NCBI GenBank assembly: GCA_965208575.1
Contig: CBDBOV010000003.1
Location: forward strand, 64,001-128,000
Direction of reading: 5' to 3'
Origin: Spirochaetia bacterium
GTDB taxonomy: Bacteria; Spirochaetota; Spirochaetia; SZUA-6; Bin103
Length of the DNA: 64,000 bases
Notes under the pieces: model-generated
The model's database searches: none
What the model saw: only the letters and a program-made list of their open reading frames with translations
What the model was told of the DNA's origin: nothing
Shown here: positions 6,910 to 10,286 of the stretch, in pieces
Numbering within the stretch: position 1 is the stretch's first letter
Layout of the letters: every line of letters begins with the position of its first letter
Translations under genes and position numbers: made by a program

Positions 6910-7472
6910 TGGCCGGTTCCACCGAGGCGCGCATCGGCATCATCAACGTTTCCGACCGCGCCGCCGCCGGCATCTACGAGGACACGCCGGGCAAGGCGGT
7001 GGTCGCCGCGCTCGGCGAGTACCTGCTGTCTCCCTGGAGCAGCGAGTACCGCGTCATTCCCGACGAGCGCGATCAGCTCACCGCGGCCATGATCGAGATG
7101 GCCGACGACAAGGGCTGCTGCCTGGTGGTCACCACCGGCGGCACCGGCCCGGCGGTGCGCGACGTTACCCCGGAGGCCACCGAGGATGCGTGCGAGAAGA
7201 TGCTGCCCGGGTTCGGCGAGCTGATGCGCCAGGTCAGCCTGCAGTACGTACCGACCGCCATCCTGTCGCGGCAGACCGCCGGCGTGCGCGGCGCTACCCT
7301 GATCGTGAACCTGCCCGGGCGCCCGCGCGCCATCCGCCAGTGCCTGGACGCGGTGTTCCCGGCGATCCCCTACTGCGTCGACCTGGTCGGCGGTCCGCGC
7401 CTGGAGGTGAATCCCAACGTGGTCAAGGCATTCCGCCCCGGCGAGGGCAAGCCGTCCGAAGCTCGCTCCTGA
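6909..7472 (+). CDS. mog: Molybdopterin adenylyltransferase
   Basis: VSDRA, TTGGTGPAVRDVTPEAT, PGFGELMR, LSRQTAG, NLPGRP. Confidence 0.95.
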   Translation: MAGSTEARIGIINVSDRAAAGIYEDTPGKAVVAALGEYLLSPWSSEYRVIPDERDQLTAAMIEMADDKGCCLVVTTGGTGPAVRDVTPEATEDACEKMLPGFGELMRQVSLQYVPTAILSRQTAGVRGATLIVNLPGRPRAIRQCLDAVFPAIPYCVDLVGGPRLEVNPNVVKAFRPGEGKPSEARS

Positions 7473-7482
7473 GAAACAACAA

Positions 7483-8871
7483 TCAGGCGGCCTCCGGGAC
7501 AAGCTCATAACCGAGTGCGTGTGCCTGCCTTCGGAGCCGGCGTTCAAAGCGGCGCCGGTCCTGGCGCTCCTCGGCGGCGAGGATGCTGTCATCGTAGGCC
7601 ACGCGATGCGTGATCAGATGGTAGATGATCCGAGCCAGTTTATGCGCGACTGCAGTGGTCGCTTCGGGAGTACCCAGACGCGCCCGCATGCGGCGGAAGT
7701 GCTGGCCCAGGGCCGATGGGCTGCGGTACAACGACTGGGTCGCCCAGTGCAGCGCCTGGGCGGCCCGATTGGTGCCCCGACCGGTGTGCGAGCTGATGAT
7801 CTTGCCGCCGGTGATCTGGTTGTGGGGGCACAGGTGCAGCCAGGAGGCGAATTGCGGTGCGGTCGGAAAGCGGGACAGTTCCGGGCCGAGTTCGGTGAAC
7901 AGAACCAGCGCCGTACTTTCGCCGATGCCGGGAATCAGCGTCAGGTCAGTGCCGAACAGGTGCGTAAGGTGGCCGCGCAGGTCGAACCGCTTGGCCGGTG
8001 ACTCGGTTGGCGCCTCGGGCTCCGCATCGATTCCCTCATCCGGTGGGTCGTCGCCCACCGCGCCGGGTGGCTCGCTGCTGGCTTCGAACGCGCGGATGCC
8101 GGCTTCGATTTCCTGATCGCACTCCGTGATGAGTTGTTGGTAGTGGGCATAGGTCGCTCGCGCGTGCCGCAACGCCAACAGGTGCTCGGCGCGCCAGTCG
8201 CCCTGCAGCGCCTTGATCAAGGTCTCGCGGCTGGCTTTGATCCGCCGGTCGGCCAGAGCGGCCAACCGCGCCGGATCCCGCTCACCCGCCAGGATAGCGT
8301 CCGTAATGGCCAGACCGGTCGTCCCCGTCAGGTCAGAGATGGCATGGTGCAGATGCACGTTCATCTGGCTGTACGCCTTCTGCATGTGCAACACGCTGCG
8401 CGACGCCATCTTGATCAAGGTGTCGCGATGGCGCAGCACCGAGCGCAGTGCACACACCTCGTCGGCAGGGCGGAATGAGCCGCGCAGCAATCCCACCGAG
8501 TGCAGGTAGCGCAACCACTCGCAGTCGGCCACGTCGGACTTCCGACCGGGTACCGAGTGCACGTGACGCGCATTCACCAGCACCACGTCGAAGCCGTGTG
8601 CCTCCAGGATCTGATACACCGGAATCCAGTACACACCGGTGGACTCCATCGCCACCGTGGTGACCTCGCATTCCTTGAGCCAGTCGGCCAAGGCGTGCAG
8701 GTCCGCGGTGAACGTAGCAAAGTTCCGGATCGGGTCCGGGTCGCGCTCCGGGCGCACAGCCGCGTACACCTCGGTAGCGCCTATGTCCAAGCCGGCAGCG
8801 TCCGGGTGCATCACCTTTGGTTGCGCTGTGCGACTGCCCTTGCCCTTGCGTCTGTGTCTGCGTCGTGCCAT
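7483..8871 (-). CDS. IS110 family transposase/recombinase
   Basis: DEDD RuvC-like motifs GLDIG, AMESTG, GRKSDVADC; C-terminal LIPGIG...ITGGK and AVAHKLARIIY; RBS GGAGG before ATG 8871. Confidence 0.95.
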   Translation of the reverse strand: MARRRHRRKGKGSRTAQPKVMHPDAAGLDIGATEVYAAVRPERDPDPIRNFATFTADLHALADWLKECEVTTVAMESTGVYWIPVYQILEAHGFDVVLVNARHVHSVPGRKSDVADCEWLRYLHSVGLLRGSFRPADEVCALRSVLRHRDTLIKMASRSVLHMQKAYSQMNVHLHHAISDLTGTTGLAITDAILAGERDPARLAALADRRIKASRETLIKALQGDWRAEHLLALRHARATYAHYQQLITECDQEIEAGIRAFEASSEPPGAVGDDPPDEGIDAEPEAPTESPAKRFDLRGHLTHLFGTDLTLIPGIGESTALVLFTELGPELSRFPTAPQFASWLHLCPHNQITGGKIISSHTGRGTNRAAQALHWATQSLYRSPSALGQHFRRMRARLGTPEATTAVAHKLARIIYHLITHRVAYDDSILAAEERQDRRRFERRLRRQAHALGYELVPEAA

Positions 8872-8879
8872 GAAACCTC

Positions 8880-9100
8880 CGCTACGACTGAGTGGTGCGG
8901 CCAAGGCGTGTGTAGCAGGTATTCTCCTGAACGGGATGATCGCCACCCGGCCGCGCCGGCTGACAACCTCACCAATGACTACGCCACCCGCCCCGGGGCC
9001 AAGCTCTTGAACGGGTTCGCAGAACGTAACGCCAGTGACGCGCCGGCCTACTTTCGCGCTCCACCCAGAACTCTGCCCACACTATAGCTCACCCTTGTTT
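8880..9100 (+). ncRNA. Candidate IS110 bridge RNA (boundaries approximate)
   Basis: CTCCTGA 8924-8930 matches target flank 7466-7472; AGCTCTTGA 9002-9010 matches element end 9137-9145; each is followed by ACGGG and later CGCGCCGGC. Confidence 0.55.
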
Positions 9101-9146
9101 CTTTCATGACTGCGCCGGCCCAGGGGCCGGTGGGATAGCTCTTGAG

Positions 9147-10286
9147 TTACTGATCCATCACCGAGCCGTCGCTGTTCAGGCGCGTCTCTACCGCTCGCGG
9201 CCGGTAGGGATGGCGCTGGCGGGCGTCCGGTGCCAACTCGATGCCGATGCCCGGACGCTCCGGCAGTAGCAAGAACCCGGCGTCCACCGCGAGAGGCCGG
9301 TCGACGATGGTGCGCTTCGGCGGCAGCTCCTCCCCGGCCGGCAGCTCCTGCAGCGCGAAGTTGGGAATGGCGGCGGCAAGCTGGACGCACGCCGCGGTGC
9401 TCACCGGGCTCAGCGGGTTGTGCGGGACCACCTGGACGTGGAACGCCTCCGCCACCGCCGCGATCTTCCTGGCGTGGGAGATGCCGCCCACCATGCACAC
9501 GTCGGGCCGCACGTACTGGACGGCGCCGCGCTGCAGGAGCGCCTGGAATTCCCAGATGCTGTGCAGCCGCTCTCCGGTGGCGATGGGAATGTGAATCCGC
9601 TCCGCCACCAGGGCCATCTCGTCGAGGTTGTCGGGGAGAATCGGATCCTCGTAGAAGAAAGGGCGATAGGGCTCGATGCCGCGGCCGAGCACCACCGCCT
9701 CGGCCGGGGTCAGGCGGCGGTGTATCTCGATGCACAGGTCCACGTCATTGCCCACCGCCTCCCGGTAGCGGCGCACCGTATCGGCGGCATCCTCCATCTT
9801 GTCGGCGTGGGTCTTGAAGTAGGGCCGGTCGCGCGCCTCGTCCAGGAACGGCGTCAGGTGGCCGACCGCCGTGAAGCCGCGCGCCTTGGCGTCGATGCAG
9901 CCCCCGATCAGCTCTTCCTTGGTACTCCCCTTGACGTGGTAGTAGGCGCGCGCCCGGTCGCGGCACTTGCCGCCGAGGAGCTGGTGTACCGGCACGCCGA
10001 AGTGCTTGCCGGCAATGTCCCACAGGGCAATGTCGACGGCGCTGAGCGCGCCCATGATGGCCGCCCCGCGGAAATGGGTCCAGCGGTACAGGTACTGCCA
10101 GTGGTGCTCGATGCGCAGCGCATCCTGGCCGACCAGGTAGCGTGCAAAGGTGTCGACGGCCGCGGCCGACGCCTCCAGGAAGCCCCACGCCCCTGATTCG
10201 CCGAGGCCGGTGATGCCGGCGTCGGTATGCACCTGCACGTACAGATAGCGATCCACCAGCAGCGTCTCGACGGCGGTGATCTTCAT
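9147..10286 (-). CDS. Mandelate racemase/muconate lactonizing enzyme family (galactonate dehydratase-like)
   Basis: MKITAVET, TDAGITGLGE, SAVDIALWDIAGK, FYEDP, IATGERL, VRPD, PHNP. Confidence 0.9.
   Translation of the reverse strand: MKITAVETLLVDRYLYVQVHTDAGITGLGESGAWGFLEASAAAVDTFARYLVGQDALRIEHHWQYLYRWTHFRGAAIMGALSAVDIALWDIAGKHFGVPVHQLLGGKCRDRARAYYHVKGSTKEELIGGCIDAKARGFTAVGHLTPFLDEARDRPYFKTHADKMEDAADTVRRYREAVGNDVDLCIEIHRRLTPAEAVVLGRGIEPYRPFFYEDPILPDNLDEMALVAERIHIPIATGERLHSIWEFQALLQRGAVQYVRPDVCMVGGISHARKIAAVAEAFHVQVVPHNPLSPVSTAACVQLAAAIPNFALQELPAGEELPPKRTIVDRPLAVDAGFLLLPERPGIGIELAPDARQRHPYRPRAVETRLNSDGSVMDQ

Follow-up and report, generated by a model that had tools for sequence, protein, structure and literature searches.

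An IS110-family insertion sequence in a Spirochaetia bacterium carries a probable bridge RNA gene with a variant guide layout

The closest described systems are the bridge RNAs and seekRNAs of IS110-family elements. In the text of the two reports on IS621, the 5' side of each RNA loop pairs with the left part of the bottom strand (9 nt) and the 3' side with the right part of the top strand (4 nt) (PMC11208160, PMC11208158). Along one strand, 5' to 3', come RE, the CT core and the RNA-encoding LE (PMC11208160), and a handshake guide position follows on the 3' side of the right guide (PMC11208158). The text on ISEc21 gives its seekRNA the IS621 order, in which the stretch that pairs with the bottom strand comes first, 5' of the one that pairs with the top strand, and it writes the nucleophile motif of IS1111 transposases as S(t)G, that is, Thr-Gly in some members (PMC11187229). 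As far as the published text goes, IS1111 elements have a non-coding region downstream of the gene, transposases of 330-350 amino acids and subterminal inverted repeats of 7-17 bp.

We analyzed an insertion sequence in the window (the whole stretch of 64,000 nucleotides of the Spirochaetia contig). On its protein matches, the element belongs to the IS110 family. Its main parts, with the ends as argued below, are as follows.

7466-7467: the other copy of the CT core, on the flank side of the element
7468-9140, minus strand: IS110-family insertion sequence, 1673 bp including one copy of the CT core (9139-9140)
7468-7472, plus strand: element terminus CCTGA, the donor half-site that the donor guide would read
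7483-8871, minus strand: recombinase (transposase) gene, 462 amino acids plus stop
8877-8881, minus strand: GGAGG, ribosome-binding site of the recombinase gene, 5 bases before the ATG and aligned in relatives
9141-9145, plus strand: CTTGA, target half-site in the flank, outside the element; in related subfamilies it differs between copies of one element

The recombinase matches the Pfam domains DEDD_Tnp_IS110 (PF01548, 6.4e-20) and Transposase_20 (PF02371, 1.5e-11), and scores 251 bits against NCBIfam NF033542 ("IS110 family RNA-guided transposase", cut-off 140). It also aligns with the IS621 chain 8wt6_A (E 1.3e-7), with a Thr at the nucleophile Ser. The Thr-Gly that faces the catalytic Ser-Gly of IS621 is common among 47 relatives: 24 have TG, 21 have SG and 2 have no motif, with Thr in the branch of the window element and Ser in an Acidobacteriaceae branch. 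An acidic, Pro-rich insert between the two domains (residues ~256-310) brings the protein to its 462 amino acids, against 328 in the IS621 chain.

In the genome of the window (G000) we counted 15 full copies of the element, with 100% identity to one another over 1651 nt. About 400 bp away from one full copy there is also a fragment of 278-320 nt (G000:C2:51408-51713), which corresponds to the recombinase-3' end at 95-97% identity. Elsewhere this genome has a second IS110-family gene, distinct from that of the window (168 bits), and, at 74% identity, what is left of a related element (G000:C6:68538-69722 and G000:C4:146529-147232). Among plasmids, matches from Citrobacter and Enterobacter (matches H5-H13) encode a 46% identical recombinase with similar CCCG-guide modules, which is common on enterobacterial plasmids; this recombinase was found in 61 Citrobacter records, and in the one record inspected it is inserted in an IS66-family element.

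The position of the element ends determines how the guides are read. At the left junction, all 15 copies have xCTCCTGA followed by GAAAC, which with the ends adopted here is xCT-CCTGAGAAAC. The right junction is GATAGCTCTTGA in 14 copies (GATAG-CT-CTTGA). The remaining one, between two tandem copies, reads GATAGCTCCTGA followed by GAAAC, i.e. GATAG-CT-CCTGAGAAAC. CT is common to both junctions, and the core is CT on the plus strand of the window. Two placements of the ends fit these junctions because the target (CTC-T-TGA) and the donor (CTC-C-TGA) are nearly identical. One places the element at 7473-9145 with CTCCTGA as the target, as an earlier sequence-only reading of this DNA had done; the other takes the CT of GCT as the core, which gives an element at 7468-9140 and a target of the form x-CT-CTTGA.

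Related elements with 74-81% identity to the window element decide between the two, because their two half-sites are unlike each other. For instance, the junctions of one such element (L072) are GCGGG-CT-CCTTAGAAAC and GGATAG-CT-TCACAC, and the homologous empty site in G000 is GCGGG-CT-TCACAC. A second (L067) behaves in the same way against its empty homologous site in G000. A third (L074), compared with a repeat family of G000, leaves no gap with ends at 7468 and 9140 and a 3-base gap with ends at 7473 and 9145. For all three, the comparison with the empty G000 sites gives flank-CT-flank with zero extra bases.

We also looked for empty sites of the window element itself in relatives. Ten were tried and eight were resolved; two loci (L007 and L010) yielded no empty site. 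Six of the eight have CTCTTGA (L002, L003, L005, L006, L008 and L009), and at L009 the same heptamer is present in all four paralogous copies fetched. In the nearest relative the remaining two, the window site and L004, have CTCCTGA instead, a result expected with ends at 7473 and 9145 and not with ends at 7468 and 9140; the window's own site, empty in three relatives (G006, G004 and G003), has the C. We estimate the chance of two such sites at about 0.06-0.1, a rough figure that assumes word counts and a few per cent of C-to-T divergence; G000 contains 317 unoccupied CTCTTGA words versus about 620 CTCCTGA. At both C sites the right junction in G000 is nonetheless CT-CTTGA, and the C form matches the donor guide perfectly. 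That match may be no accident, and a second crossover, or conversion at a site matching the donor guide, is a weaker possibility to which the two sites point.

Given the empty sites of the related elements, six of the eight own sites, and a tandem junction identical to the expected circle junction, we accept, on these sequence comparisons, an element at 7468-9140 with a CT core. Insertion leaves no target duplication, the empty sites being flank-CT-flank, with two of the eight deviating at one base. The stretches that the sequence-only reading had labelled target flank and element end are thus 5 bp off: 7466-7472 consists of the core CT and the first five element bases, and 9137-9145 of the last two element bases, the core CT and five bases of target flank.

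Several features of the copies and ends are worth recording. The tandem pair is a head-to-tail dimer outside the window (G000:C4:1265899-1269251) in which two copies have one common core, so that its junction is the predicted circle (donor) junction; such dimers may act as standing donors. In two related elements, L066 (G014) and L073 (G005), the left flank is itself an element end. L009 (G000:C6:987586-989267) lies within a repeat that G000, G001, G006 and G007 contain in dozens of copies; many of these carry AGCTCTTGA at the same place, so that this one repeat family offers many ready targets. An inverted 7-mer, GAAACAA / TTGTTTC, lies 5 bases from one end of the element and about 40 from the other (7473-7479 and 9095-9101) and may be a short subterminal repeat; its GTTTC block is kept in all subfamilies. 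A hairpin CCGGCC-CAGG-GGCCGG (9112-9132), located upstream of the -10-like box described below and at the extreme end of the element, is kept as a hairpin in relatives.

Two words in the non-coding end repeat the DNA at the element boundaries. Read on the minus strand, they are as follows.

9004-9010, minus strand: target guide UCAAGAG, predicted to pair with plus-strand CT-CTTGA of the target (five flank bases plus the core)
9002-9003, minus strand: CU after the target guide, matching the last two bases of the element end (AG, plus strand)
8924-8930, minus strand: donor guide UCAGGAG, predicted to pair with plus-strand CT-CCTGA (the core plus the first five element bases, at the recombinase 3' end)

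The strings had been cited exactly in the sequence-only reading: CTCCTGA at 8924-8930 equals 7466-7472, and AGCTCTTGA at 9002-9010 equals 9137-9145. The nonamer occurs at 2 places in the 64-kb window against 0.11 expected, and 1 of 100 shuffles reached 2. The heptamer CTCCTGA matches 4 times in the window, fewer than the 6.3 expected, and 89 of 100 shuffles had at least as many; by itself it is unremarkable, and its weight comes only from covariation in relatives.

We compared the related elements together with 52 further loci from a scan of genome contigs, whose proteins are 42-71% identical (best segment); both guide contexts are present in 58 of 76 sequences. In the alignment of the non-coding ends, the 9002-9010 word keeps the frame AG-CT-NNNNN across related elements. 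Its five variable bases track those beside the non-coding end (CTTGA here; TGACA, TTACT, TCACA and TGACT in relatives), and these are flank because they differ between copies of one element in relatives. The 8924-8930 word keeps CT-CCTNA and tracks the other end of the element (CCTGA, CCTTA or CCTAA).

For 40 distinct guide/junction pairs, leaving out duplicates and 11 loci without a recognisable end motif, 161 of 200 target-guide positions match the flank, against 106.9 +/- 6.0 in permutations, none of 10,000 being as high, although the kinship among the 40 sequences means that the shuffle controls overstate significance. For the donor guide, the element end was located independently of the guide. 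The guide 5-mer equals the element-end 5-mer in 43 of 51 loci across six guide classes (cross-class control 0 of 306), and the eight misses have truncated or divergent ends. There are at least 13 classes of target guide and 6 of donor guide, while the protein stays similar. Because each word covaries with its own DNA partner, we assign 9002-9010, on comparative sequence evidence, as the target guide and 8924-8930 as the donor guide. Both long matches noticed earlier are thus real guides with their roles exchanged: the heptamer that was proposed to covary with insertion sites follows the element end, and it is the 9002-9010 word that follows the flank.

The shorter pairings are less regular. 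The CU at 9002-9003 resembles the handshake guide of IS621 and, by analogy, may act as one; in a second clade (group 2) the handshake-like position has CG, and the non-coding end begins with CG. Group 2 also has a match between the other (left) flank and the 5' strand of the target loop, at 28 of 35 positions (permutations 22.3 +/- 2.3, 46 of 10,000 as high): the loop 5' sides GCCGA, GGGGA, GGCGA and CGGGA face TCGGC, TCCCC, TCGCT and TCCCA. With the plus strand of the window as top, this side reads like the left flank plus C. In the window element's own subfamily we found no partners for the 5' loop strands, the flank there being barely conserved (G in 9 of 14), and target choice rests on about 7-8 bp. 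The tetramers CAAC and TTTC, which had been taken for short right guides, are chance matches, as the partner flank is unconserved beyond its first base (G in 11 of 14 flanks). We also considered GGUGGCGUAG (5' strand of the donor loop, 8990-8975), for which the first 10 bases of the non-coding end offer a potential partner (8 Watson-Crick pairs and 1 G-U); other subfamilies have no covariation there and we do not claim this pairing.

The guides lie in a predicted RNA with the following parts.

8889-9068, minus strand: predicted body of the bridge RNA, closed by helix H1 (9068-9060 with 8897-8889)
8997-9048, minus strand: target-binding module, with H2 (9048-9043 with 9002-8997) and H3 (9034-9029 with 9016-9012)
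9042-9035 and 9011-9003, minus strand: 5' and 3' loop strands of the target module, the latter UUCAAGAGC
8901-8996, minus strand: donor-binding module, with H5 (8996-8991 with 8906-8901) and H7 (8974-8967 with 8939-8932, variable tip)
8990-8975 and 8931-8907, minus strand: 5' and 3' loop strands of the donor module, the latter beginning UUCAGGAG
9081-9086, minus strand: -10-like box TATAGT, with a TAnnnT aligned to it in each of the 9 subfamily representatives

A consensus derived from 40 sense-strand sequences (RNAalifold plus pair counts) has 35 pairs in six helices, with 94.5% of cells paired; 22 of the 35 pairs have changes on both sides, and slid controls are 29-49% paired. In the target module, such changes affect 4 of 6 pairs in H2 (96.6% of cells paired) and 1 of 5 in H3 (100%); in the donor module, 5 of 6 in H5 (97.1%) and 3 of 7 in H7 (99.6%). 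Each module consists of an outer helix around an internal loop and an inner hairpin ending in CCCG, and the long guide directly follows the CCCG. This bears out the two parallel guide modules of the sequence-only reading, and the ACGGG found after each match is explained as the CCCG strand of H3 and H7. Its further repeat CGCGCCGGC, correctly located at 8952 and 9039, carries no such meaning: it is a common G+C-rich word with 11 + 11 occurrences in the window, and the copy at 8952 lies in a variable hairpin and is unconserved in relatives.

Guide-DNA matches alone are strand-neutral, so we judged the strand from the allowed pairings, the covarying structure and the promoter-like box. With the corrected ends, a plus-strand RNA would read like the core and right half of the top strand, which is neither of the pairings allowed in IS621, and a minus-strand RNA is complementary to the core and right half of the top strand, which is an allowed one. 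The same helices are 75.7% paired on the plus strand (1033 Watson-Crick, 287 G-U and 24 A-C cells), a comparison with the 94.5% of the minus strand that is biased to sense, as the structure was predicted on the sense strand. The consensus folding energy is -89.7 for sense versus -66.1 for antisense. A structure predicted on the antisense alignment is no better there, with 85.3% paired on antisense versus 85.9%. Single-sequence folds are no better than shuffles on either strand (z -0.86 on minus, -0.05 on plus).

Upstream of the RNA body, the ACTATA of the plus strand at 9081-9086 is indeed TATAGT on the minus strand, and this -10-like box would place the RNA start near 9074. On the plus strand, TAnnnT occurs in only 2 of 9 subfamily representatives and lies within the guide itself. 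A consensus scan of both strands gave no full sigma-70 promoter and no terminator. A scan of 7000-9600 against Rfam 15 (E up to 10) gave no family match, with a single chance hit at E 5.5. In the metatranscriptome X1, three strandless contigs with a depth <3 and 95-99% alike fall in the recombinase gene only, none over the non-coding end. Because the covarying helices with their many G-U pairs and the conserved -10-like box favor the minus strand, the RNA gene most likely lies, as judged from these sequence features, on the strand of the recombinase.

We therefore put at roughly 0.85 the probability that 8889-9068 encodes, on the minus strand, the bridge RNA of the IS110-family element at 7468-9140. 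In its first (5') module, UCAAGAG (9010-9004) would pair with plus-strand CT-CTTGA of the insertion site, and the CU that follows would match the last two bases of the element. In the second module, UCAGGAG (8930-8924) would pair with CT-CCTGA, the core and the other element end in the arrangement they take up in the excised circle. The recombinase, by analogy with IS621, would bind this RNA, which would bring together the circle junction (GATAG-CT-CCTGAG) and the target (x-CT-CTTGAg), and strand exchange at the CT core would insert the element with no target duplication. Transcription, protein binding and chemistry would, on the same analogy, follow IS621.

A bridge RNA on the plus strand, antisense to the recombinase, had been proposed for this locus, with CUCCUGA (8924-8930) as the left target guide, AGCUCUUGA (9002-9010) as the left guide for the donor and the element bounded by 7473 and 9145. 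With those ends, the order of target loop then donor loop on the plus strand would copy IS621, and the window site and L004 have the CTCCTGA that it predicts when empty in the nearest relative. We consider it very improbable all the same. CTCTTGA stands at the other six of the eight resolved empty sites, the ends of three related elements differ from this proposal by 3 bases of length, and its circle junction would read GATAGCTCT-TGA-GAAAC and not GATAG-CT-CCTGAGAAAC, the tandem junction having C where T is required. The 9002-9010 word tracks bases that vary between copies of one element, hence flank. The helices pair at 75.7% on the plus strand against 94.5% on the minus, the plus strand is without a conserved -10-like box, and with corrected ends the RNA would pair with the 5' part of the strand at the crossover, a pairing that IS621 does not use. 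The plus-strand proposal arose because the ends had been set 5 bp off; corrected ends, G-U-rich covarying helices and the -10-like box all favor the minus strand.

Two other explanations would do away with a guide RNA altogether. The internal copies of end and flank could be DNA sites, for example subterminal repeats bound by the recombinase, since matches at the DNA level are strand-neutral and each end has a copy of the inverted repeat GAAACAA / TTGTTTC nearby (7473-7479 and 9095-9101). Helix pairs kept through two-sided changes (22 of 35) and 287 G-U cells are expected of RNA and not of duplex DNA, however, the guides sit in loops between helices as in IS621, and the name of the NCBIfam protein family is itself RNA-guided, so that we give this explanation scarcely any credence. 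Alternatively, the structured minus-strand RNA could be a mere leader of the recombinase mRNA that controls translation or stability, with the protein choosing the target. The RNA body stops 8 bases ahead of the GGAGG ribosome-binding site, and the consensus scan shows no terminator between RNA and gene, which would suit a leader. Yet among similar proteins the loops change in step with target and element ends, in no fewer than 13 classes of target guide and 6 of donor guide, and a leader function has no need of such covariation. The two roles are compatible, and a leader with no guide role is improbable, if marginally less so than the two preceding alternatives. The bridge RNA on the minus strand remains our preferred explanation. 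What stands of the earlier proposals is a non-coding end of an IS110 element with a bridge-RNA-like gene.

As far as the texts cited above describe them, much of this locus resembles IS621. The recombinase has DEDD and Transposase_20 domains and a long non-coding end upstream of its gene; the predicted RNA is about 180 nt long, with the target module first and the donor module second, each with an internal loop between a stem and an inner hairpin. The guides span a 2-bp CT core in donor and target, there is no target duplication, and one guide is followed by two bases that match the other DNA, handshake-style. Calling the window plus strand top reproduces the layout of the IS621 text, with a 5' side that reads like left plus core, a 3' side complementary to core plus right, and handshake bases thereafter.

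This top strand is, unlike in the published IS621 description, antisense to the genes: the gene direction reads RE-AG-LE here and RE-CT-LE in IS621. A layout specific to IS621, with the CT core on the gene strand, fails for the window element, whose core is AG in gene direction. Seen in that direction, and again relative to the IS621 text, guides identical to left plus core lie 3' of the inner hairpins, and the 5' side in group 2 is complementary to the right flank. The long guides of the window element (7 nt) are on the 3' sides of the loops and the 5' side is short or unassigned. The protein also differs (462 versus 328 amino acids in the IS621 structure chain, distant at E 1.3e-7, with Thr for the nucleophile Ser), and we saw no promoter rebuilt at the circle junction when the sequence was read by eye. 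The sequence-only reading is borne out in so far as the polarity of the site relative to the recombinase gene is the reverse of that in IS621; an RNA strand opposite to the transposase is not supported.

The published text on ISEc21 describes a non-coding region upstream, RNA stretches complementary to both target strands, and close relatives naturally redirected by few changes of guide bases, all as here; the order of the stretches in the window clade is opposite in gene direction (PMC11187229). In that order, with the top-strand match 5' of the bottom-strand match, the clade is like the IS1111-type seekRNAs of ISEc11, ISPa11 and ISKpn4 as the same text gives them (PMC11187229). In other respects it departs from the published description of IS1111 elements: with a protein of 462 amino acids and an upstream non-coding region, the window element has 269 nt of its sequence before the start codon (8872-9140) and only 15 nt after the stop (7468-7482), and the only repeat seen is the 7-nt GAAACAA / TTGTTTC, unevenly placed. 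The running text of the literature searched yielded no inverted or antisense bridge RNA arrangement and no upstream RNA gene with the IS1111 guide order.

The bridge RNA gene thus looks real and its guide layout looks like a variant of known ones. The striking claim of an antisense bridge RNA gives way to an ordinary sense-strand reading. It also exposes a pitfall: where half-sites differ by one base (CTTGA versus CCTGA), ends misplaced by 5 bp are enough to reverse the strand inferred for the RNA. The relatives further provide a natural series of reprogrammed guides, at least 13 target and 6 donor classes with matching insertion sites, and the system is compact, its main guide being 7 bp long.

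More tentatively, and with somewhat less than even confidence, we suggest that a whole clade uses a mirror-image arrangement undescribed for elements with an upstream RNA gene, the clade comprising the window element, its genus, many Acidobacteriota assemblies and plasmids of several phyla. In it, the strand opposite to the RNA and recombinase genes would bear the CT core, so that the long programmable guides would come to lie on the 3' sides of both loops, and one branch would have a Thr in place of the nucleophile Ser. If this is true, the polarity of the bridge-recombination site relative to cargo is free, and the guide orders of IS110 and IS1111 elements are linked. These observations suggest that bridge systems need not follow IS621 in how the site is oriented with respect to the genes or in which side of the loop holds the long guide, a flexibility that would be of use for mining or engineering bridge recombinases.
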